From contig CAZTIP010000001.1 in NCBI GenBank assembly GCA_964613185.1, forward strand, positions 52,716 through 116,715: a stretch of DNA of 64,000 nt. Direction: 5' to 3'. The notes under the pieces are model-generated. The model did no database searches. It was not told where the DNA came from and was given only the letters and a program-made list of their open reading frames with translations. Each line of letters opens with the position of its first letter. The stretch's first letter is position 1. Position numbers and translations under genes: made by a program. This DNA is from Candidatus Woesearchaeota archaeon. Its GTDB lineage: Archaea > Nanobdellota > Nanobdellia > Pacearchaeales > GW2011-AR1. Shown one piece after another: positions 2,116 through 33,456 of the stretch.

Positions 2116-5100
2116 TTAAAACCATTTTTTCAAATCTTCTTGTTTCTCGTTATCTTTTCCAAAAATACTTTCAATATACATTTTGGTCAATTCCATACCT
2201 TCTTTCGTATAATGGGAAATATTATAATTTTCTGCCAAATTCATTGCGGGCTCCAAATATTTCTTAATAGACCCCTCACTAATTGTGAAAATTATTTTTC
2301 CCTTACAATTTGTACAAACCCCGGACAAGGGAGGTCTTCTAAATTTATTATTACATGCAACACATCTAAATTGTTGTTTAGCAAACTTTCTTAGATTACC
2401 TCTAATATCTCGGATAAAATGTCTTTCGATAATTAGTCTTGCAACATCTTCCGTATCTACTGCACGAATTTTAGAAACAATTTCCATTTGACCATTAACT
2501 TTATCTTTCATAGTGGGCAAAATTTTGTAAGCCCCATTCAAAACACCAATATTAAAATCAGAAGAATCATGAGTAAATCCCAAATTTACAAAAGGGTTTT
2601 TTCCAGAATTCAATCTATTTTTAACATTATCAATTTTGCATTCGCTAGAGTGTTTTTCTTTTTCGGCTAATTCATAAACTTCCAAAGGATAATGGTCACA
2701 AACCTCCAAATTTAAAATCTGGTCATCGACTTCTCCTGCCCTAATTCTTGCATTTAAAACAAGAGGTGCATCTTGAGTTCCTCCACGATGACTTGGCAAA
2801 AATTTTCTAGAAAAATTAATCAACACATCCATCAACATCATTACGGCAGCCTCATCTCCATCACAATCTCTTCTCATTGCAGCATGCATATAAGGACTGG
2901 CAGTCAATCCTTGAAGCTCATTAAAACCAATTATTCTTCCAATAACTCCTGCACAATTATGAGGTGCCATACAAACAACTAATTGGCCAACCAAATCTTC
3001 ACTAGATTTCAGATTATAATAAGAAGGTAATTTATAAAATTTTTCCAACTCTTCATCAACAAATTTTGAGATATGTAAAAAAATCTTGTCTGCCTTTTCA
3101 TCTGCAGTAACAGGACATGAAGGCAAAACAACATCATGGGGCCTCAATTCTAAAATTTGATCATCTTTAGATAAGATTTCTCCATTTATGTCATGAGTAT
3201 ATCCCAATTCTATTAATTTTTCAACACTTGTTCGAATCTCAAAAGGTTTAAAATGAGTCAAGGGAATTTCAGTACCATCATAACGTATTGTTCCATCTTT
3301 ATTAACAGCTAAATTATATTTCGCTCTCAAAATACCTTTAGATAAATGCTCAAAGTCCCTCCCATCACTACTAGTTCCTCTAATCCCTTTAATCAACGGA
3401 GGTACATCATAAGAATTATAATCCAAAAATTCTGTGGCCTGTTTAAAAAAACTTTTTGAATCAATTTTACGGTAAGTATAATTAACACTAACTTCATGTT
3501 TTTCGCAAGGTTCTTTCAATGTTGTTCTACATTCCCTACAATAATATTTCCGAACAGTTTTATCACCACATTTTTCACAAAGGGAATAGATTGTTTCATT
3601 ACCACACTTACAATAAAAGAGAGGCCAGTCAGATTTTATAAATCCGACCTTAACGGCATCCTGAATACTTCTAAAACGGCCACCTTGTTCTGAAACTGGA
3701 AAAAGCATATTTGGACTCCCAGTCAATTTACGAAGTTTAGCTTTCTCTGGACGACCCATTCTTGTCCCAATAAAATCTCCACTTTTATCCTTAATCCTAT
3801 ATTTAGACAGGCCATTTACAATTTTTAAAACATCGACTTCATCAACCGGATTATTTTTTATTTTCAAAATTTGTTCTTTTAAAGATTCATCTTCAGAAAA
3901 TTCTATACCTAAATTTTTCAGAAAAGGTAATGCATCTTTATTTAGCACAACATTATCCAAAACAACTTCGTGCTCAATTCCTAAAATTTCAAGAGCCCGT
4001 TTAGCTTTCGAATAATTTTCTCTAACCGAATTTTCCCAAGGCAAAACAAGTTTTCCATTTTCATTAAAAGAAATTTCTTTATCTGAAATATTTTCTCTCC
4101 AAACAGCTTTTTGAATCCAATCAATCAAAAAATAAAAGTCATCCTTAGAAATTTGATTCCAATAAAATATATATTTTGGATGTAAGGGTAATAAATATTT
4201 TTCACTTAATTTAATAGCTTCTTCAAAGGAAACATCAAAAGAATCCAAACAAATTTCTTCACCAGTAACTTCCAACTTTTTATCTAATTCCAGTTTCCAC
4301 CATTCTTCAACATAACCAGGTTTTACCAAATTTGCATTACGATCCATAACATCTCCCAAGGGAAATAAAATATCTCCCAAATATATTATTTCTTCAACTT
4401 CTGGATAAATTTTTTTAGATTCTTCAAAATTAGAAATTTTTCTAACAGATCCATCAATTAATTTAACTATAGGTCCATCAATTTGGTCACAGGAAGTAAT
4501 AATACATCCTTTAGTGGGTTTTTCAATCTTTAATTGAGTCCCATGAGATAAAAAACCATTTGAAATCCCCATAGTTGCAGGATGGATTGATGCAGCACTA
4601 AAACCTGCAACTCGGCTTCGCCCATATCGAAATCTAAATCCTCCAGAAACACTTGGATGTCCATAGACTGGACGGCCAGCAACTAAATCTTTGATATAAG
4701 TTGCAACAACATCTGAACTTCCCTTTTCTCTCTTATTATGGATGACCAAATATTCCTCCAAAAAATCCCATCCAGTACACTTCATTCCATTCTTTTTTGG
4801 AGATTTTAAACGGCCCCACCCTTTTCCAGCCTTTTGAGCAAGTCCTTCGCTAAAAGTCAGACACATTCCTCCACGGATAAAATTAGTATGAACTCTTTCC
4901 AAATCCTTAAAATTAGAAACTTCAAATTTTTCAGTAGGGTCACCAGAAATCTGTATAGGTAAGTTCTTTGCTAAAAAATACATTTCTTCTTCAGTTGGAA
5001 AATATTGTAAATTAGTAACTCTTTCATGATAATCTGTATTTTCAGTAATGTATCTTTTAATTTCATCTTCACTCGGATCATATTTAGCATAACCAAAATG

Positions 5101-5652: not shown

Positions 5653-7252
5653 TTTTCACAACTTCCTCAATTTTATTCTTATTAAGTTCCTTAACTTTTG
5701 AAGTTTCTCCCTCGCCAGGCAAATCATCTGAAAAATCTAAAATTTTTATTTCCCTAGTTTTTAAATTAAACAAAGGAACTTTACAAGGGTCTGGAACATT
5801 TCCAACTTTTTCTTCAAATGGTGTGATAGATTGCCAACAAGAACTAGCAATTAATAAAATATTATTATAATTTGAAATTTCCAATCGGTGTTGGTCTCCG
5901 GTAGTCACAATATCTGGAATAATATCTATAACCAAAGGGTCTTTATTCTCACAAGGGATATAATCCATTAAACCATGCATAGGTGCCAAATGCCTTCTCT
6001 TCAAAATTTCTTTAACAACAGTAGTAGGGGAACTATGCCCAAAAGTAGTTCTAATAAAAGGAATTTCATCAATTATCCTATTAATACTTCCTCCATGATA
6101 CATTAAAATTTTAAATCCTCCATCAATTTCTACAAGCGAAGGATTTGGAACTAAATGCAGATTTTCAATCTCGTGTAACCCTGGGGCCCATCTATCTCCA
6201 ATAATTGGTTGAGGTTCTCCAACCCAAACAGAATCATGTTGACCAGGACTCATAATCATTTGAACATCTTTCCTAACTAATTTAAAAATTTCTTCAACTT
6301 TCTTATATTGACCTAGTGAAGTTTTTTCAATTAAATGTTTTTCTTGCCCAGGGTAATGACTAACACCATCAATATTATCTCCATTAATAAACAAATATTT
6401 AACCTTTTTAGCAAGTTCTCTCTGTTTTTCATCACCTTCTTCTCCATTCAACCATTTAATAAATTTCAAAATATTTTTTTCCAAAAACATAGTAGAACCT
6501 GCATGTAAATCACTAATAAATGCGACATATTCATCAAATTCACTATATCTTTTCTCAACTAAAGCAGCTTCTGGATAAATAATTTCATTAGCAAAAAGAA
6601 TATCTGAAGTTCCAGTAACATTAAACGCAACAATATCATCTAAAAGAACCTCTTTTGTTTTATCAAATACTTCTTTCTTATTTTGATTAACTAAAACAAC
6701 TGAATTTCCCGTTAAATCTTCAACTTCTAAAAGTAAATTTTTATTTTTAGTAATTCTTTTATTAACTATAGAAACTATGATTGTATAACTTCCCCTATTT
6801 GTTCCTATTTTTCTTATAGAGCTCAAATTTTCAAAATCTTTTTTTTCCAAAATAGATTTCATAGATTCATAGCGCGCACGAAAATGATTTACGAAATCTT
6901 TCACAACCACTTTCTTTTGAGGAAATGCAGGTGCAGAAATTAATTTTAAACGACCATTTTGAACATCGCCAGTCAAATCATTTTTATTCAAATTTTCAGT
7001 TGGTTCAGTATTTTCAATTCCTCCAAATAAATTTTTAATTTCGTCAACATCTTCAATCAAAAAATTCTTAAATTTATCAAAATGTTTTGAAAACAAACTT
7101 TTAGTAATTACTCTTTCACCAATATCTAAATTTCCCAGAACCTCAATAACTCTTTTAGCTCCAGCTTCGTTCAATGTAGATAGTAAATCTAACATTTCCT
7201 TATCTAAAAGAAACCCTTTTCCCATACAAAGTTTTAATATTTCTGATGCCAT
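5642..7252 (-). CDS. polB: DNA polymerase II (PolD) small subunit DP1, a calcineurin/Mre11-like phosphoesterase.
   Basis: 536 aa with phosphoesterase motifs (DLHAGS, GDNIDG, GHHD-like). Its position between orc1 and DP2 matches the conserved archaeal oriC-orc1-DP1-DP2 arrangement. Confidence 0.9.
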   Translation of the reverse strand: MASEILKLCMGKGFLLDKEMLDLLSTLNEAGAKRVIEVLGNLDIGERVITKSLFSKHFDKFKNFLIEDVDEIKNLFGGIENTEPTENLNKNDLTGDVQNGRLKLISAPAFPQKKVVVKDFVNHFRARYESMKSILEKKDFENLSSIRKIGTNRGSYTIIVSIVNKRITKNKNLLLEVEDLTGNSVVLVNQNKKEVFDKTKEVLLDDIVAFNVTGTSDILFANEIIYPEAALVEKRYSEFDEYVAFISDLHAGSTMFLEKNILKFIKWLNGEEGDEKQRELAKKVKYLFINGDNIDGVSHYPGQEKHLIEKTSLGQYKKVEEIFKLVRKDVQMIMSPGQHDSVWVGEPQPIIGDRWAPGLHEIENLHLVPNPSLVEIDGGFKILMYHGGSINRIIDEIPFIRTTFGHSSPTTVVKEILKRRHLAPMHGLMDYIPCENKDPLVIDIIPDIVTTGDQHRLEISNYNNILLIASSCWQSITPFEEKVGNVPDPCKVPLFNLKTREIKILDFSDDLPGEGETSKVKELNKNKIEEVVKNGK

Positions 7253-9907: not shown

Positions 9908-9988
9908 GCTCACATCGCATAATGGTATTGCACCAGGTTCGAACCCTGGGTCTTTCGAGACATCCCCGTTCGATTCGGGGTGTGAGCG
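9908..9988 (+). tRNA. tRNA-Ser (anticodon CGA), class II with a long variable arm. No CCA is encoded.
   Basis: Folded by hand. Acceptor GCTCACA/TGTGAGC with discriminator G. Anticodon stem CCAGG/CCTGG with loop TTCGAAC. Variable arm GTCTTTCGAGAC. T-arm CCCCG-TTCGATT-CGGGG. Confidence 0.85.
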
Positions 9989-13975: not shown

Positions 13976-14209
13976 AACTATCTTTAAATCAAATTTAAGG
14001 CAATTTAAACCTCTAATTCTATTTTTTTGAACAAATAGTCATACAATTCACAAAAACTATCAAAATAAGCAATTTTATTTAAAAAATTAATTCAAAAAGT
14101 GAGAGTTAATCTTTAAAATTTTTTAAAAACAAACAGAAGAGACTAGCTTAAAACCAAATTTTGCCGACGATAAAAAATTCAAGAAAAACCTAAAAAAAAA
14201 GAAATAAAT

Positions 14210-14295: not shown

Positions 14296-15114
14296 GTGAT
14301 GGAACTTCAAGAATTTTTAAAAAAAATTGAAATAGAATTAAAAATATCTAAAAACTCAGATTATACCTTGAGAAATTATCTTAAATCAAATAAGGATTTT
14401 TTAGAATTTACAAAAAAATCTCCCGAAAATTCAGAACAAGAAGATGTAAAACATTTTATAGCAGAAAATCTCGCAGACAAATCTTCAAACTCTATAATCC
14501 TTTTTTTATCTGCAATAAAATATGCATATTCTTCTGTTTTACAAAAAGACATAACTTCAAATATTAAAAGACCAAGAAAAGAAAAGAGAATTCCAAAAGT
14601 TTTGTCAAAAGAGGAAATAAAAAATTTTTTAGAAGTTCTTCAAAATGAAAAATCAAAATTAATGGTAAGTTTAATTTATGCATGCGGACTTCGAGTTTCA
14701 GAATTAACAAATTTAAAAATTTCTGATTTAAATTTTCCCGAAAAAATTGGATACATTAAACAATCAAAAGGGAAAAAAGACCGATTATTTAATATTCCCA
14801 ATTTTCTATTCGAAGAATTAAAAGACTATACGGAAAAACAAAAAGGAAAAGAATTTTTATTTACTGGAAAAAATGGGAAACTTTCATCAAGAAATTTACA
14901 AAAAATAGTTTCCTCTGCATCAAAAAGGGCAGGGCTTGAAGGAGTCCATTGTCACACCCTAAGACATAGTTTCGCAACACATTTACTCGAGGCAGATACA
15001 GATATAAGGAAAATTCAAGAACTTTTAGGGCACTCCGATTTATCTACTACTCAAATTTATACTCATGTATCTGCAGAAGAATTAAAAAAAATAAAATCTC
15101 CAATAGATTTTTAA
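14296..15114 (+). CDS. Tyrosine site-specific recombinase, XerA/XerC/XerD family.
   Basis: 272 aa. Catalytic signature ...GLRVSEL... then HTLRHSFATHLL... then LLGHSDLSTTQIYTHV, giving the R, HxxR and H/Y residues. Confidence 0.9.
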   Translation: MMELQEFLKKIEIELKISKNSDYTLRNYLKSNKDFLEFTKKSPENSEQEDVKHFIAENLADKSSNSIILFLSAIKYAYSSVLQKDITSNIKRPRKEKRIPKVLSKEEIKNFLEVLQNEKSKLMVSLIYACGLRVSELTNLKISDLNFPEKIGYIKQSKGKKDRLFNIPNFLFEELKDYTEKQKGKEFLFTGKNGKLSSRNLQKIVSSASKRAGLEGVHCHTLRHSFATHLLEADTDIRKIQELLGHSDLSTTQIYTHVSAEELKKIKSPIDF

Positions 15115-15938: not shown

Positions 15939-16472
15939 ATGGTTTGTGCAAAATGCGATTATCAAGATTTAAAAGAATTAAAATTTTTTAACAAAACTCT
16001 TTGTCAAATTTGTGCAAAATTCGCTCCAAAAGAAAAAGAAAAATTAAATGAGTATCTCGATGAAAAAATAGATTGGAAACTTTTAGAAACTTTTAGGAAA
16101 AATAGTCAGGAATCTGGAAAATCAAAGAAAGAGGGAATGGGTAAAAAAGCAAGTGGAGGCGATTTGGTAACTCGTCCTCCAAAAGGTTATGAAGTCATCT
16201 CTGGAAAGTTAATTCCAAATAAGGATGCATCAAAAATACATTCACTATTCAGGACATTTATCAATAGGAACTATTCCCTAAACTCTTTAGCAAGAAATTT
16301 CACACTTTCTACAAATGGTGTAAAAAAAATTCTAACTAATCGGACCTATCTTGGAGAAATAAAATTCAATGGGAAAATCCATAAGGGAAATCATCAAAGC
16401 ATAATCTCTCCAGAAATTTTTTACGCAACTCAAAGGAAGTTGAAAGGTTATCTAAAACCAAGAAAAAAATAA
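15939..16472 (+). CDS. Serine-recombinase remnant. It has an N-terminal zinc ribbon and a large-serine-recombinase 'recombinase' domain but no resolvase catalytic domain.
   Basis: ...PPKGYEVISGKLIPNKDASKIHSLFRTFINRNYSLNSLARNFTLSTNGVKKILTNRTYLGEIKFNGKIHKGNHQSIISPEIFYATQRKL matches the recombinase-domain pattern (PxGY ... iL.N..Y.G ... H.piI..e.F..vQ). No S/R catalytic core is seen. Confidence 0.55.
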   Translation: MVCAKCDYQDLKELKFFNKTLCQICAKFAPKEKEKLNEYLDEKIDWKLLETFRKNSQESGKSKKEGMGKKASGGDLVTRPPKGYEVISGKLIPNKDASKIHSLFRTFINRNYSLNSLARNFTLSTNGVKKILTNRTYLGEIKFNGKIHKGNHQSIISPEIFYATQRKLKGYLKPRKK

Positions 16473-16477
16473 AAAAT
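16451..16477. repeat. Left copy of the 27-bp perfect direct repeat TCTAAAACCAAGAAAAAAATAAAAAAT. It overlaps the stop codon of the recombinase remnant.
   Basis: Identical copy at 17040-17066. Confidence 0.85.
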
Positions 16478-16508
16478 AAAAAAAATTTAATTTGCCCAAA
16501 TAATTTTA

Positions 16509-16997
16509 TTAAATTTCTATTTCAAAAGCACCAACATAGCTTTGTGACCCGTGGTCAGAATTACTTACCAGCGTAGGTATTGTGTAAACTGTTACAACAT
16601 AGTTTCCAGAATCGTGAAAGCCGGTTGAGGTAGAAATTTCTTCAAGAGCCGAACTAACAATATTTCCCGAAGTTCTTGTACTTATCACTGAATTTTCTCC
16701 ATCTGAAATGACTATCTTGACATACGCTGCACCTGTTGTATCACCTATATTTCTAAGGTCCATACTTAATAATCGATTACATTTCAAATCACTTGTACGG
16801 CATCCATATTCTCCTCTTGAATAAAGGGGGTCGGTAACTACATTTTCAGCAATAAAATAAGGGGGGGATACGGCAGGAGAGCCCTGAGGTTCAGAGTTAT
16901 TTGAAACCACTAAGGAAACTATCACTGCAACTATCACCGAAATTAATATTGTTGTTAAAACTTGATTTTTATCCATTTTTTTTAAACCCCCTTTCAA
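16509..16997 (-). CDS. Secreted/membrane-anchored protein, hypothetical. It is the cargo of the DR-flanked cassette.
   Basis: N-terminal TM segment followed by a Ser/Thr/Gly-rich domain. It looks GC-richer than its surroundings by eye. Confidence 0.5.
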   Translation of the reverse strand: MKGGLKKMDKNQVLTTILISVIVAVIVSLVVSNNSEPQGSPAVSPPYFIAENVVTDPLYSRGEYGCRTSDLKCNRLLSMDLRNIGDTTGAAYVKIVISDGENSVISTRTSGNIVSSALEEISTSTGFHDSGNYVVTVYTIPTLVSNSDHGSQSYVGAFEIEI

Positions 16998-17030
16998 ATT
17001 ACTTTCTTTTTAAAGGGGGGGTATTTATAC
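16985..17030. terminator. G/C-clamped hairpin: CCCCCTTT - 17-nt loop - AAAGGGGG. Poly-G runs are otherwise very rare in this sequence.
   Basis: Inverted repeat read from the sequence. It lies between two minus-strand genes. Confidence 0.3.
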
Positions 17031-17039
17031 TTTTTGATT

Positions 17040-17066
17040 TCTAAAACCAAGAAAAAAATAAAAAAT
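17040..17066. repeat. Right copy of the 27-bp perfect direct repeat.
   Basis: Identical to 16451-16477. Confidence 0.85.
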
Positions 17067-17904: not shown

Positions 17905-18314
17905 TTAATCAACTCCATAATTTCTTTAATTGTCGAATATTTCATTAGTTTTTTATGGTCAAAAGTTTTAACATTTTTCAAATCAGATTCTTTCAAATCT
18001 CCATTTCCAATATGGCATTTCAATCTCTTAAATGCCTCTCTTCCCTTAGCTCTATCTCTAGGCAACATTCCACGAATCATTCGTTTCAACAACCTATCTT
18101 CTTTACGAATATATTTTGGGCCTTTCAACGAACTTCCACCACCCATTTCTCTTTTTGCAAGAATTTTTTTAGCAAAGACTCTCTTATCTCCAGAAACAAT
18201 TACCTTTTCAGAATTCAAAATATCTACAGAACCACCCTTCAAAAGTTCTTTGGCAACAAAACTTGACATTCGTCCAAAAATTGCACCTTCTCCATCAACA
18301 ATTAATTTATTCAT
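17901..18314 (-). CDS. rpl13: Ribosomal protein uL13.
   Basis: MNKLIVDGEGAIFGRMSSFVAKELLKG... Overlaps the rps9 start in an ATGA arrangement. Confidence 0.9.
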   Translation of the reverse strand: MNKLIVDGEGAIFGRMSSFVAKELLKGGSVDILNSEKVIVSGDKRVFAKKILAKREMGGGSSLKGPKYIRKEDRLLKRMIRGMLPRDRAKGREAFKRLKCHIGNGDLKESDLKNVKTFDHKKLMKYSTIKEIMELIK

Positions 18315-18667
18315 TTTAAAATATTAAAACCATTTAATTCAGGATTTTTCTTCATTTCATCAACAATATAAACAAAACTAGATTTTGCATCTTTAATTTT
18401 TTGGATTGCTTTTTCAGAGGCAGACCAAGCAACAATTTTTTTAGAACTTCCCAAATCCCCTGCACTTAAAATTTTTCCAGCAACTAAAATATCTCCCTCA
18501 ACCATATCCGCTTCTTTCAAATTAATAACTGGCCATCTCCTTTTAGGTCTTGCAAGTTCTTTAGCAACTTCAGGATTAGTTTTTTTTAATTTAATGATAG
18601 TGCTAACTAGTTCAGCATTCATTTTATGCTTCATTCTCTTTTCAATTTTGGTTTTATTTATTTCCAT
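18311..18667 (-). CDS. rpl18e: Ribosomal protein eL18 (L18e).
   Basis: Size, basic composition, and the conserved position upstream of rpl13-rps9. Confidence 0.8.
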   Translation of the reverse strand: MEINKTKIEKRMKHKMNAELVSTIIKLKKTNPEVAKELARPKRRWPVINLKEADMVEGDILVAGKILSAGDLGSSKKIVAWSASEKAIQKIKDAKSSFVYIVDEMKKNPELNGFNILK

Positions 18668-18799
18668 ATTATTTTTTAATTAAATTTTGATTTTCCGACA
18701 ACCGAATTAACGGAGATGGATTCATTGAGAGCCTGCGAACGATGAGTGAACCTTTTCAAAGGTACTTTCGAACCAAGTTCGAATTCTTCGACAACCGAA

Positions 18800-18883
18800 T
18801 GGGCGGAGAAGGATTCGAACCCTCGTAGGCACTAAGCCAATGCGCCCTTAACGCACCCCGTTTGACCACTCCGGCATCCGCCC
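18800..18883 (-). tRNA. tRNA-Leu, class II, copy A. The anticodon loop as written is TTAAGGG, which gives an unusual anticodon AAG.
   Basis: Hand fold of the minus strand. Acceptor GGGCGGA/TCCGCCC with discriminator A. Long variable arm GGCTTAGTGCC. T-arm GAGGG-TTCGAAT-CCTTC. The body is identical to the tRNA-Leu at 32986-33069 except for the 16-nt anticodon stem-loop. Confidence 0.75.
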
Positions 18884-18967
18884 GCGAATTTAATGAAAGG
18901 ATGTTGGACTCGAAGCGATTTCCCATCGCTACTTTCCGGCATCCGCCCGCGAATTTAATCAAACGAA

Positions 18968-19687
18968 TTATTTCAATACTTTAGAGACTTCAGAAAGATC
19001 AACTTTCAAAGCCTTACATGCCTCGGAAAAAATTTCCTTAGCTTCAATTTGTCCCCAAGATTCAATTGCAAAAAACAAATTCTTAGTAGGTTCAACTTCA
19101 ACCCCAGGAAATGTCTCAACATCTTCAGAATCTAAATCTGCAGTTATTGTTTCTTGAATTTTTAAATTTCCAGAAGAATCTAATTTAAATGCCTCTGGAT
19201 AAATCTCTGCGAGTTCATTTTGGAGTTCTCCTTCTTTTGAAATTTTAATTTTAGGAACATGGTGGTAAAAAATTAATCCAGGAATATACTTTGAGTGGAT
19301 AGATCCAGTTCCAATTTTAGCCTTGGCAACAATTTTAAGTTCCTGACCTTCCCCCAATAAAACAATTGGAATTTCAGGATATGTAACAATATCTCCGGAC
19401 AAATCTCCAGAAAGAACCATTGTCCCATCGGCCTTACTTTTTACATGAAGTTTAAATTCAAGAACATCATCTTTCTTAAGTTTTTGATTTTTTAAAGGAA
19501 TAAGACCTAGCCTGTGAGCGATAATTTCATCATAAAGAGAGGAATCATTTTTATAAATATCAACCTCTTCAATTGCCAAAACATTTATCTTTCCAACACT
19601 CCTTCGAACAGCATTAGCTAAACTAATATCTAAATCAGTAATTACTGAAAATCTTTCTCTGTTCTCTTCAATTAATTTTGAAACCAT
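18968..19687 (-). CDS. rpoD: RNA polymerase subunit Rpo3 (D).
   Basis: ...ANAVRRSVGKINVLAIEEVDIYKNDSSLYDEIIAHRLGLIPL... Confidence 0.9.
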   Translation of the reverse strand: MVSKLIEENRERFSVITDLDISLANAVRRSVGKINVLAIEEVDIYKNDSSLYDEIIAHRLGLIPLKNQKLKKDDVLEFKLHVKSKADGTMVLSGDLSGDIVTYPEIPIVLLGEGQELKIVAKAKIGTGSIHSKYIPGLIFYHHVPKIKISKEGELQNELAEIYPEAFKLDSSGNLKIQETITADLDSEDVETFPGVEVEPTKNLFFAIESWGQIEAKEIFSEACKALKVDLSEVSKVLK

Positions 19688-30948: not shown

Positions 30949-31028
30949 ATAAAAAAATAGGATTCAAAGTTTATAAATAATTCGTAGGAAAAATACCTTA
31001 ATTATTTTAAGAAAAATAAATAAAAAAT

Positions 31029-31135
31029 AGACAGCTCCGTGTTTTCCCATCAAAGACAGTACAGACACGAACATAACAAGCTTAACTTCTGAGTTCGGAA
31101 CGGGATCAGGTGTAACCAAGTTATTATGGCCGTCT
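31029..31135 (-). rRNA. 5S rRNA, stand-alone. The ends are approximate, within a few nt.
   Basis: Minus strand ...CACCTGATCCCGTTCCGAACTCAGAAGTTAAGC... is the 5S loop B/helix III signature. The terminal helix is AGACGGC/GCTGTCT. A TTTATAAAT TATA box sits about 25 nt upstream. Confidence 0.8.
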
Positions 31136-31177
31136 AATTCTAAGACAAAATTTCAATTTATAAATCTTACTACTTGG

Positions 31178-32581: not shown

Positions 32582-32631
32582 AAATTTAATTAGAAAATTG
32601 GATTTATATAATTTAACCTTAGTAAATAAAT

Positions 32632-32760
32632 CGTTAGCTTCTTTGAAGTGCACCCTTGTCCTTTAGGATACGCCCTGGCGGAACCGTTAGTTCAAATCCA
32701 ACGCTCTCGGCAGGATTCGTTGCGAGCCTGAGAGAAACGAGTTAGCTTCTTTGAAGCGCC
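32632..32760. repeat. ~107-bp tandem duplication containing a partial tRNA-Arg 3' end plus its trailer (CCGTTAGTTCAAATCCAACGCTCTCGGCAGGA, x2). It is a pseudo-tRNA/minihelix remnant.
   Basis: Direct repeats read from the sequence: TTAGCTTCTTTGAAG(T/C)GC and GAACCGTTAGTTCAAATCCAACGCTCTCGGCAGGA each occur twice. Confidence 0.6.
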
Positions 32761-32785
32761 TCTTGAACCGTTAGTTCAAATCCAA

Positions 32786-32861
32786 CGCTCTCGGCAGGAT
32801 TTGAACCTGCGACTTCTTCCTTAGGAGGGAAGCACTCTAATCCAGGCTGAGTTACGAGAGC
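32786..32861 (-). tRNA. tRNA-Arg (anticodon CCT).
   Basis: Hand fold. Acceptor GCTCTCG/CGAGAGC. D-stem ACTC/GAGT. Anticodon stem CTTCC/GGAAG with loop CTCCTAA. T-arm GCAGG-TTCAAAT-CCTGC. Confidence 0.85.
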
Positions 32862-32985
32862 AATAAAGTTCGAATTCTCCAACAACCGAATTAACGGAGC
32901 AGGATTCATCGAGGGCCTGCGAACGATGAGTGAACCTTTTTCAAAGGTACTCTCGAATCAAGTTCGAATTCTTCGACAACCGAAT

Positions 32986-33069
32986 GGGCGGAGAAGGATT
33001 CGAACCCTCGTAGGCACTAAGCCAACAGATCTTGAGTCTGCCCCGTTTGACCACTCCGGCATCCGCCCG
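32986..33069 (-). tRNA. tRNA-Leu (anticodon CAA), class II, copy B.
   Basis: Same body as 18800-18883. Anticodon stem-loop GCAGA-CTCAAGA-TCTGT. Confidence 0.85.
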
Positions 33070-33209
33070 CGAATTTAAATGAAGGATGTTGGACTCGAAG
33101 CGATTTCCCATCGCTACTTTCCGGCATCCACTCACGAATTCAAGAGGGGACATTGGACCTGAAGAGATTTTTTCTCGCTACTTTCTGGCATCCCCCAACA
33201 AAAACAAAA
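33070..33209. repeat. Two tandem ~60-nt tRNA-5'-like structured units upstream of tRNA-Leu. Minus strand: GGGGGATGCCAGAAAGTAGCGAGAAAAAATCTCTTCAGGTCCAATGTCCCC and GGATGCCGGAAAGTAGCGATGGGAAATCGCTTCGAGTCCAACATCC.
   Basis: The units share GGATGCC(A/G)GAAAGTAGCGA...TTC(A/G)(A/G)GTCCAA. The terminal stems (GGGGGA/TCCCCC versus GGATG/CATCC) and the internal hairpins (GAGA/TCTC versus AGCGAT/ATCGCT) differ in sequence but preserve pairing. Confidence 0.5.
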
Positions 33210-33280
33210 TGCGCGGACGGGGATTCGAACCCCGGTCATTTGGTTGGAAGCCAAAGATTCTGCCACTAAACTATCCACGC
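33210..33280 (-). tRNA. tRNA-Gly (anticodon TCC).
   Basis: Acceptor GCGTGGA/TCCGCGC with discriminator A. Anticodon stem TTTGG/CCAAA with loop CTTCCAA. T-arm CGGGG-TTCGAAT-CCCCG. Confidence 0.85.
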
Positions 33281-33456
33281 AGTTTTGCCTTTAGCGAAGA
33301 TTATTTTTGAAACGATTTCAAATCGAGTAACTAAACATCAACGCACAAAATAATCACCTAATTTAGGGTTTTAAAGTTTATGTTTTAGAGAAAAATAAAC
33401 AATAAGTATAAATACTAAAAAATCATTAAAATAATACTATTTGAAAGGAGGATACA

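Follow-up and report, generated by a model that had tools for sequence, protein, structure and literature searches.

A tRNA-Leu(AAG) gene in the archaeal rpoD-L18e spacer and its apparent exchange of sequence with a tRNA-Leu(CAA) gene

Transfer RNA (tRNA) genes that encode adenine at the first anticodon position (A34) are highly unusual in archaea, as published work attests (PMC6000648; PMC11066159; PMC8879553) and as a preliminary description of the DNA considered here had stated. In a survey of 167 archaeal genomes, tRNA-ANN genes were almost completely absent and Leu-AAG was present only in Ferroplasma; in Ferroplasma acidarmanus it replaces Leu-GAG through a G-to-A change (PMC6000648). A 2024 paper describes A34 tRNA genes as absent in archaea (PMC11066159). 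This article describes a tRNA-Leu(AAG) gene in a stretch of 64,000 nucleotides (nt) from a Candidatus Woesearchaeota archaeon (contig CAZTIP010000001.1, positions 52,716 to 116,715; hereafter the window), together with a tRNA-Leu(CAA) gene that shares its body and flanks. In our assessment these are probably two working tRNA-Leu genes, set among structured spacers and homogenised by exchange, and the AAG gene probably encodes a bona fide A34 tRNA. The duplication is real but less remarkable than the fixation of A34 throughout a large radiation of archaea, in conflict with the accepted rule.

Ferroplasma provides the archaeal comparison, and because F. acidarmanus has Leu-AAG instead of Leu-GAG, an archaeon can tolerate the change to A34. 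The window gene is likewise an archaeal tRNA-Leu with A34, the GAG gene being missing in Ferroplasma, but the Ferroplasma case concerns a single species among the 167 genomes, whereas here the feature is a clade-wide trait with evident purifying selection. In eukaryotes and some bacteria (Lactobacillales, Oenococcus), tRNA-Leu(AAG) serves the same amino acid and is read as IAG, being a substrate of ADAT2/3 or TadA. These tRNAs have in common with the archaeal genes A34-A35-G36, a purine at position 37, clade-wide conservation and an apparent role as stand-in for the G34 isoacceptor; they differ in that the host here belongs to Archaea, the domain from which A34 tRNA genes are reported to be absent. 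Unmodified A34 is found in Mycoplasma tRNA-Thr(AGU) and yeast mitochondrial tRNA-Arg(ACG). The present case resembles these in its small AT-rich genome, its CUU:CUC ratio of about 5:1 and the lack of a deaminase in the accessible DNA, but unmodified A34 belongs there to narrow lineages, whereas A34 here spans a broad radiation (RpoD identity 36-100%) and, as far as seen, involves only leucine. A tRNA-Leu with A34 is known as a kind, and it is the domain and the breadth of its occurrence that are new. No description of A34 or of inosine at position 34 (I34) in DPANN archaea was found in the literature, the coverage of which was incomplete, and a prior record may exist, for example in tRNA databases.

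Two leucine tRNA genes on one scaffold

Both genes are real. ARAGORN places tRNA-Leu(AAG), here copy A, at 18800-18883 and tRNA-Leu(CAA), copy B, at 32985-33068, each on the minus strand, and with Rfam scores of 47.0 and 55.2 bits, respectively, both exceed the gathering score of 29 for RF00005. Each is an 84-nt gene, contiguous and complete, and neither is split, permuted or intron-bearing according to ARAGORN and Rfam. Copy A is of class II, with discriminator A73 and the anticodon arm GUGCG-UUAAGGG-CGCAU, which combines A34 with G37; copy B has the arm GCAGA-CUCAAGA-UCUGU with anticodon CAA, an assignment supported by positionwise comparison and by orthologues at the related loci L090, L092 and L095. 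Because the Rfam alignment puts the 5-bp stem GUGCG/CGCAU around a loop of 7 nt, UUAAGGG, in which position 33 is U and position 37 a purine, the AAG register of copy A is correct. The extra arm of copy A, uggcuuagugccua, lies between the anticodon and T arms, the gene ends in ...CCGCCCA, and the cloverleaf is intact in both the Rfam alignment and the predicted fold. A long variable arm and discriminator A73 are identity features of archaeal leucine tRNAs.

Copies A and B differ at 12 positions, all of them inside tRNA positions 29-43, and the 69 positions outside this patch are identical. Near-identity reaches past the genes into the flanks: the blocks 18690-18950 and 32876-33135 are about 95% identical outside the 15-nt patch, with 231 of 256 alignment columns the same, or 228 of 241 without the swapped patch. 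The sequence preceding the genes (the leader) is identical at 58 of 61 positions and that following them (the trailer) at 101 of 111 aligned columns. A repeat search of the window also paired these regions (as D3, D4 and D6), with a spacing of 14184-14185 between partners, and likeness of this order in a 64-kb window is not attributable to chance. The preliminary description was right in its main structural points, namely two near-identical regions (now seen in alignment, repeat search and independent assemblies), 84-nt class II tRNA-Leu genes on one scaffold with differing anticodon arms, and an AAG anticodon with G37 in copy A, for which ARAGORN returns aag and the Rfam alignment shows no shifted register. 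It had taken the 16-nt anticodon stem-loop to be wholly different; the arms do differ, but through a 15-nt patch with 12 changes. It also overlooked, in a repeat that is itself real, a leader hairpin and a trailer containing a decayed tRNA 3' end.

Contigs of metagenomic origin invite the explanation that assembly produced the duplication as an artefact, by collapsing a repeat or making a chimera of it, and contigs from other samples (L001, L003 and L006) do break at the repeat, while another (L091) is a hybrid of both loci. Each locus has nevertheless been recovered independently with its own arm and its unique outer flanks, locus A in L002 and L004 and locus B in L090 and L092, which makes an artefact scarcely credible. 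Independent assemblies, represented by L001, L002, L090 and L092, recover both loci, and the ends of L001, L003 and L006 inside the repeat are to be expected of a genuine repeat.

Conservation of tRNA-Leu(AAG) between rpoD and L18e

Copy A lies in an operon on the minus strand with the order S13-S4-S11-rpoD-[tRNA]-L18e-L13-S9. Comparison with related genomes covered the rpoD and SecF neighbourhoods of partial genomes, and the rpoD set comprised 89 loci: L001-L009, obtained by exact-protein look-up of close homologues (RpoD 65-100% identical), and L010-L089, obtained by one scan of species-representative genomes with RpoD alignment (36-65% identical). After rpoD, tRNA-Leu(AAG) is present at 68 of the 89 loci, tRNA-Leu(CAA) at two (L046 and L087), tRNA-Leu(GAG) at one (L064) and tRNA-Leu(UAG) at one (L027); L18e follows directly, with no tRNA, at 12, and of the remaining five, one holds a decayed remnant (L029) and the others are loci cut off by a contig end or not followed by L18e. 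In 55 of the 68 cases the AAG gene shares its strand with rpoD and L18e and stands strictly between the two, and three of the 68 (L054, L078 and L084) bear an intron at the canonical position. Because the AAG gene occurs at so many of these loci, down to an RpoD identity of 36%, copy A is best regarded as a conserved resident of the rpoD-L18e spacer. The preliminary description had correctly placed it inside the rpl18e-rpoD operon, although as a newcomer, which it does not appear to be.

The 68 AAG genes contain 26 distinct 17-nt anticodon arms, over which U33-A34-A35-G36 is invariant, whereas the stems vary with 100% pairing and with compensatory double substitutions at all five pairs. The stem covariation score of 1.005 compares with 0.216 +/- 0.042 in shuffled alignments, was reached in none of 500 shuffles and collapses when the partners are slid. 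Because the loop is invariant while the stem covaries over these arms, tRNA-Leu(AAG) is to be read as a functional tRNA, with a genomically encoded A34 and under purifying selection for its anticodon, and not as a pseudogene. The preliminary description had also offered the possibility that copy A is a nonfunctional, decaying paralogue in which AAG is a pseudogene mutation, with CUU and CUC read by other tRNAs. Its Rfam score is indeed lower than that of copy B (47 against 55 bits), A34 is otherwise almost unknown in archaea, and the L029 locus does hold a decayed remnant; yet the invariant loop and fully paired, covarying stem, the intact cloverleaf with A73 and a long variable arm, and the retention of AAG beside canonical-position introns in three orthologues make decay extremely improbable.

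GAG occupies only one of the 72 rpoD loci that hold a tRNA, and tRNA-Leu(AAG) appears to replace, in this radiation, the tRNA-Leu(GAG) of other archaea. The lineages with another anticodon at this site are natural controls for the decoding question. At L027 (2231-2315), UAG is found on a stem shared with the AAG genes of L039 and L063, a single change from A34 to U34; L064 carries GAG at 2232-2315, and L046 and L087 carry CAA at 2288-2370 and 2278-2361, respectively.

Flanking modules and exchange between the two loci

Copy B lies on the same strand as copy A, 14.2 kb away, in a Gly-Leu-Arg tRNA cluster. The sister lineage, which is 92% identical to the window in both RpoD and SecF and is represented by L002 for locus A and by L090 and L092 for locus B, carries both genes, AAG and CAA, at these two loci and on an identical scaffold. 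A further relative, L095 (SecF 75% identity), has the Gly/Leu(CAA)/Arg cluster with the same CAA arm as the window. Because the gene pair and its loci are shared with the sister lineage and the CAA arm with L095, both isoacceptor genes would seem to be old. The birth of an isoacceptor by duplication and patch conversion, as proposed in the preliminary description, is not upheld by these loci. Such a history would entail a recent segmental duplication, a conversion patch in the anticodon arm and insertion of copy A into the operon. It would account for identity of about 95% outside a 15-nt patch with 12 changes, for which point mutation alone would be insufficient in that time, and whole-arm or loop swaps have occurred at the rpoD locus of other lineages: the L087 spacer holds a CAA arm resembling that of copy B, and L046 a CAA loop on an AAG-type stem. 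It is hard to reconcile with an AAG gene in the spacer at 68 loci of such divergent RpoD, with both genes at both loci of the sister lineage and with the same-armed CAA gene of L095, and is very unlikely. Because L087 and L046 hold CAA at the rpoD site, arm replacement does reach fixation on occasion.

The shared bodies are better explained, we infer, if gene conversion continues between two isoacceptor genes of old standing while selection guards each arm. Flank variants are shared between the loci by lineage, with polymorphism that fits ongoing exchange. In the window, loci A and B have one leader type and one trailer type in common; in the sister lineage, locus A (L002) consists of leader units Ua-Ub and locus B (L092) of Uc-Ua', Ua and Ua' being nearly identical, and the trailers are of types other than those of the window. 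In L001, whose RpoD protein is identical to that of the window, locus A holds the linker variant found at window locus B. A hybrid arrangement is seen in L091 (ENA ERZ24794639, NODE_68380), where positions 2945-3310 join tRNA-Gly and three leader units, from the side of locus B, to tRNA-Leu(AAG) and L18e-L13-S9, from the side of locus A, a join that omits 14 kb with rpoD, S11, S4 and S13; either the assembler jumped through the repeat, or the contig records a true deletion or recombinant. Support for concerted evolution comes from the flanking sequence, from variants in the population and from the hybrid contig, and not from the tRNA bodies. The arrangement resembles the concerted evolution of tRNA paralogues and the 'remoulding' of tRNAs by anticodon shift in its identical bodies, distinct arms and occasional arm replacement (L087 and L046), but unlike the usual case the tract takes in a leader of about 60 nt and a trailer of about 100 nt, and the number of repeats varies.

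The leader of copy A is a single unit (18884-18950, minus strand), recognised from its sequence, its individual and consensus folds and nhmmer family matches. It opens with a copy of tRNA positions 1-14 (GGGCGGAUGCCGGA) and contains one long imperfect hairpin at 18899-18948 (GGAUG...CAUCC, with inner GCGAU/AUCGC), followed by a 15-nt linker, UUUCAUUAAAUUCGC. Locus B has two units on the minus strand: B1 (33069-33135), with the 58 of 61 identities to unit A already given, and B2 (33136-33200), a diverged second copy of the hairpin (nhmmer E=4.6e-15) with a predicted outer stem GGGGG/UCCCC and inner stem GAGA/UCUC. The consensus fold of five leader units has 17 predicted pairs, three with compensatory change. 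Copy number varies among close relatives, from none in L004 and one at window locus A to two at window locus B and in L002 and three in L091.

The trailer of copy A (18690-18799, minus strand) was delimited through repeat family D2 (spacing 93), alignment with the tRNA-Arg trailers and a consensus fold. It has three hairpins (UUCGAAC/GUUCGAA, CCUUU/AAAGG and UCAUCG/CAAUGA), after which come a decayed copy of the tRNA 3' end (AAUCCAUCUCCGUUA) and a repeat of the 3' flank (AUUCGGUUGUCGG). The trailer of copy B (32863-32984, minus strand) has the same three hairpins and a pseudo-3' end (AAUCCUGCUCCGUUA), and extends to tRNA-Arg; in the trailers the decayed 3'-end copy begins in the T loop of the host tRNA. 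Similar material follows tRNA-Arg (32615-32784, minus strand), as indicated by repeat D14, alignment and an orthologous unit in L092. Its first unit (32700-32784) is homologous to the tRNA-Leu trailers, shows compensatory changes and ends in an exact tRNA-Arg 3' end with flank, so that the 37-nt stretches 32681-32717 and 32765-32801 are a perfect repeat; the second (32615-32700) is partial, starting with the repeated flank and then diverging, with no further 3'-end copy. Across the homologous tRNA-Leu and tRNA-Arg trailers, four pairs have compensatory changes, and each pseudo-3' end matches its own tRNA.

A longer version of the leader is found in more distant lineages, as pseudo tRNA-Leu 5' fragments with a structured D-loop insertion of 54-68 nt. 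Such fragments lie upstream of the AAG genes of L007 (4733-4830), L014 (2238-2346), L048 (2262-2425) and L052 (2808-3082), downstream of that of L019 (2336-2470) and upstream of the CAA gene of L095 (2456-2552). The hairpin of the insertion is conserved and covarying, with the core CTGTTCGCRATT ... GCRAATYGYTCAGTCAAAC, in host lineages only about 55-65% identical in RpoD; in L007 the insertion is a clean 54 nt, and in L052 a 137-nt unit occurs twice in perfect tandem copies, with a TATA-box-like AT-rich stretch after each. Homologous trailers of the form GGCGAAyrATTCGCTTTGAGCAAAA...TTTTGCGAAATGCAAATT... follow Leu(AAG) in L015 (1744-1858) and Arg(CCU) in L095 (2170-2276), each with a terminal copy of the 3' end of the tRNA that it follows, which suggests that this module moves or is copied between tRNA genes. 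In L014, L015, L032 and L044, the anticodon 5' stem and loop are repeated as ACGTTAAGGGC at 16-19 nt upstream of tRNA-Leu(AAG), and this copy and an 8-nt linker together directly precede the tRNA 5' end. Only four of 70 distinct loci carry ACGTTAAGGGC with TCCAATGC upstream of the tRNA, and the copy is a single sub-clade's relic; in L014 it belongs to a tandem array of 5' halves.

Fragmented archaeal tRNA genes offer a likeness in the partial tRNA pieces that adjoin the genes, in isoacceptors that differ only in the anticodon region and in the D-loop insertion of L007. Unlike split, tri-split or permuted tRNAs, the window genes are whole and the flanking pieces form no tRNA, the leader and trailer units of both regions matching no Rfam family at E<=10, not even tRNA. 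By eye, no C/D or H/ACA box motifs were seen in the units and the leader hairpin lacked bulge-helix-bulge geometry, no systematic search for bulge-helix-bulge motifs having been made. The leader was also considered as the 5' half, and the trailer as the 3' half, of a nested or split tRNA, the ends of which would pair at 6 of 7 positions; this was rejected on finding leaders without the trailer in L002 and neither in L004.

Recurrent partial direct repeats, some beginning at the 5' end and reaching the D loop or anticodon loop and others running from the T loop to the 3' end, could instead be scars of mobile elements that integrate into tRNA genes and so be the source of the shared flanks. Crossovers by integrases typically lie in the anticodon loop and the T loop. 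Homologous modules beside different tRNAs (the L015 Leu and L095 Arg trailers, and the L014 upstream and L019 downstream units) and a tyrosine-recombinase gene about 4 kb away would fit such an origin. The repeats, however, bound only 50-80 nt, with no element body and no integrase between them; the synteny around the recombinase genes is conserved, as for chromosomal Xer genes; covariation within the modules is of the kind seen in structured RNA; and the perfect tandem units of L052 indicate unequal recombination. Nor was anything related found in viral contigs: the scaffold pattern AAACGGGG-16 N-TGGCTT, matched by 14 related loci, had no match in them, and when these contigs were scanned for the tRNA 3' end and for the core of the D-loop insertion, the outcome was either no match or 22 chance matches to unrelated sequence. 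An origin as integration scars is consequently unlikely, and we read the flanks as structured, partly tRNA-derived spacer modules that would be resized by unequal recombination and would supply homology for exchange. That they act as processing punctuation is a guess.

The recombinase genes are a Xer-like tyrosine-recombinase (Phage_integrase) at 14296-15114 and, at 15939-16472, a small gene matched weakly by the Pfam family 'Recombinase', both on the plus strand and 2-4 kb past the tRNA-Leu(AAG) operon, with counterparts at 6582-7121 and 7949-8720 of L002. Their family labels are Pfam matches of syntenic genes in L002 and L007, transferred to the open reading frames (ORFs) of the window. Because the synteny is conserved at RpoD identities down to 65%, they are probably chromosomal and not parts of a mobile element. 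Nearby, a 589-bp cassette (16451-17066) is bounded by perfect 27-nt direct repeats, TCTAAAACCAAGAAAAAAATAAAAAAT, at 16451-16477 and 17040-17066 and contains a 162-amino-acid ORF (16509-16997, minus strand) with a hydrophobic N-terminus and no Pfam match. Because the ORF is absent from the otherwise syntenic L002 and L007, the cassette has the look of an insertion that duplicated its target, or of a tandem event on a small scale; the ORF is no paralogue of the adjoining 156-amino-acid ORF.

Directly upstream of tRNA-Leu(AAG), rpoD (18968-19687, minus strand) encodes RNA polymerase subunit D, with Pfam domains RNA_pol_A_bac and RNA_pol_L, and its homologues bear the name subunit D in Pacearchaeota and Nanoarchaeota. 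The L18e gene (18311-18667, minus strand), directly downstream of the tRNA and its trailer, has a weak Pfam match to Ribosomal_L27A/L18e and a conserved place before L13 and S9 at all loci. In the cluster of copy B, tRNA-Gly(UCC) (33209-33281, Rfam 67.1 bits) is the first gene and tRNA-Arg(CCU) (32785-32862, 64.6 bits) follows tRNA-Leu(CAA), both found by ARAGORN on the minus strand; an AT-rich stretch upstream of tRNA-Gly(UCC), read by eye, is a putative promoter. Rfam also finds a 5S ribosomal RNA (rRNA) at 31026-31137. A tRNA-Ser(CGA) reported by ARAGORN (9908-9988, plus strand) combines an odd, short D arm with a long variable arm, scores below the Rfam tRNA gathering score and is without flanking pseudo-units. 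The G+C content of the window is about 30%, and the proteins most similar to its RpoD and SecF belong to metagenomic archaea that bear the names Pacearchaeota, Nanoarchaeota or Woesearchaeota (DPANN).

Decoding and the state of A34

The AAG tRNA would be co-transcribed with, and is presumably cut out of, the ribosomal-protein/RNA-polymerase operon transcript. Loci A and B would keep exchanging sequence by gene conversion or unequal recombination between the direct repeats, helped by the tandem tRNA-derived spacer units, and selection would remove most tracts that overwrite either anticodon arm, leaving a mosaic of identical scaffold and distinct arms. The AAG tRNA would then read CUU through an A:U (or I:U) pair.

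Some observations tell against parts of this account. Twelve of the 89 loci are without a tRNA in the rpoD-L18e spacer, which means that the AAG gene can move from that site or be dispensed with there. L091 may reflect a jump by the assembler and not recombination. The tRNA bodies are identical in the window and the sister lineage, and because of this identity they give no separate support for concerted evolution. In addition, the CDA-type deaminase motif [HC]AE...PCxxC is absent from the 64-kb window and from 387 kb of related loci. Woesearchaeota orthogroup tables, in the possibly partial form available, contain no tadA/K11991/COG0590, which counts weakly against inosine, and under PF00383 list only a widespread comEB-like deaminase, OG0000034, and ribD (PMC8421398). 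The motif result is a weak negative as well.

Leucine codons in the 67 long ORFs of the window number 433 for CUU, 85 for CUC, 124 for CUA and 42 for CUG. Because the CUU/CUC ratio of 5.1 falls inside the range of the other NNU/NNC pairs (2.4-8.6), CUC is not avoided. A34 forms a Watson-Crick pair with U, and the reading of CUC requires inosine, weak A:C pairing or another tRNA. The chances appear evenly balanced that A34 is left unmodified, by analogy with Mollicutes and mitochondria, whose genomes are also small and AT-rich; CUC would in that event fall to weak A:C pairing or to tRNA-Leu(UAG). We know of no wobble adenosine deaminase in Archaea. Deamination of A34 to inosine by a deaminase not yet recognised is nonetheless a serious possibility, if a tentative one. 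A bacterial queuosine pathway, which also acts on position 34, has been acquired by some DPANN genomes (PMC8204110), and bacterial TadA modifies tRNA-Leu(AAG) in some groups, according to two reports (PMC8266599; PMC13249217); because of these precedents inosine stays plausible. Adenine, the substrate for I34, is encoded at position 34 of the window AAG gene and of 68 related loci. A more speculative version is that Woese-, Pace- and Nanoarchaeota make I34 in tRNA-Leu(AAG) with a bacterially acquired or unrecognised deaminase, whereby one tRNA would decode CUU, CUC and CUA, with a parallel in the queuosine pathway that some DPANN genomes have; this is possible, though doubtful. Some other state of position 34 is improbable.

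[quoted passage not shown] Should A34 be converted to inosine, Archaea have both wobble inosine and a deaminase to match; otherwise this would be the largest natural group known to rely on unmodified A34, and a natural system for asking why A34 is avoided. Repeats of this kind also break or mis-join metagenome assemblies inside a core operon. The locus itself offers a clean case of isoacceptor genes kept identical by what appears to be recombination, while the anticodon arm of each would be guarded by selection.

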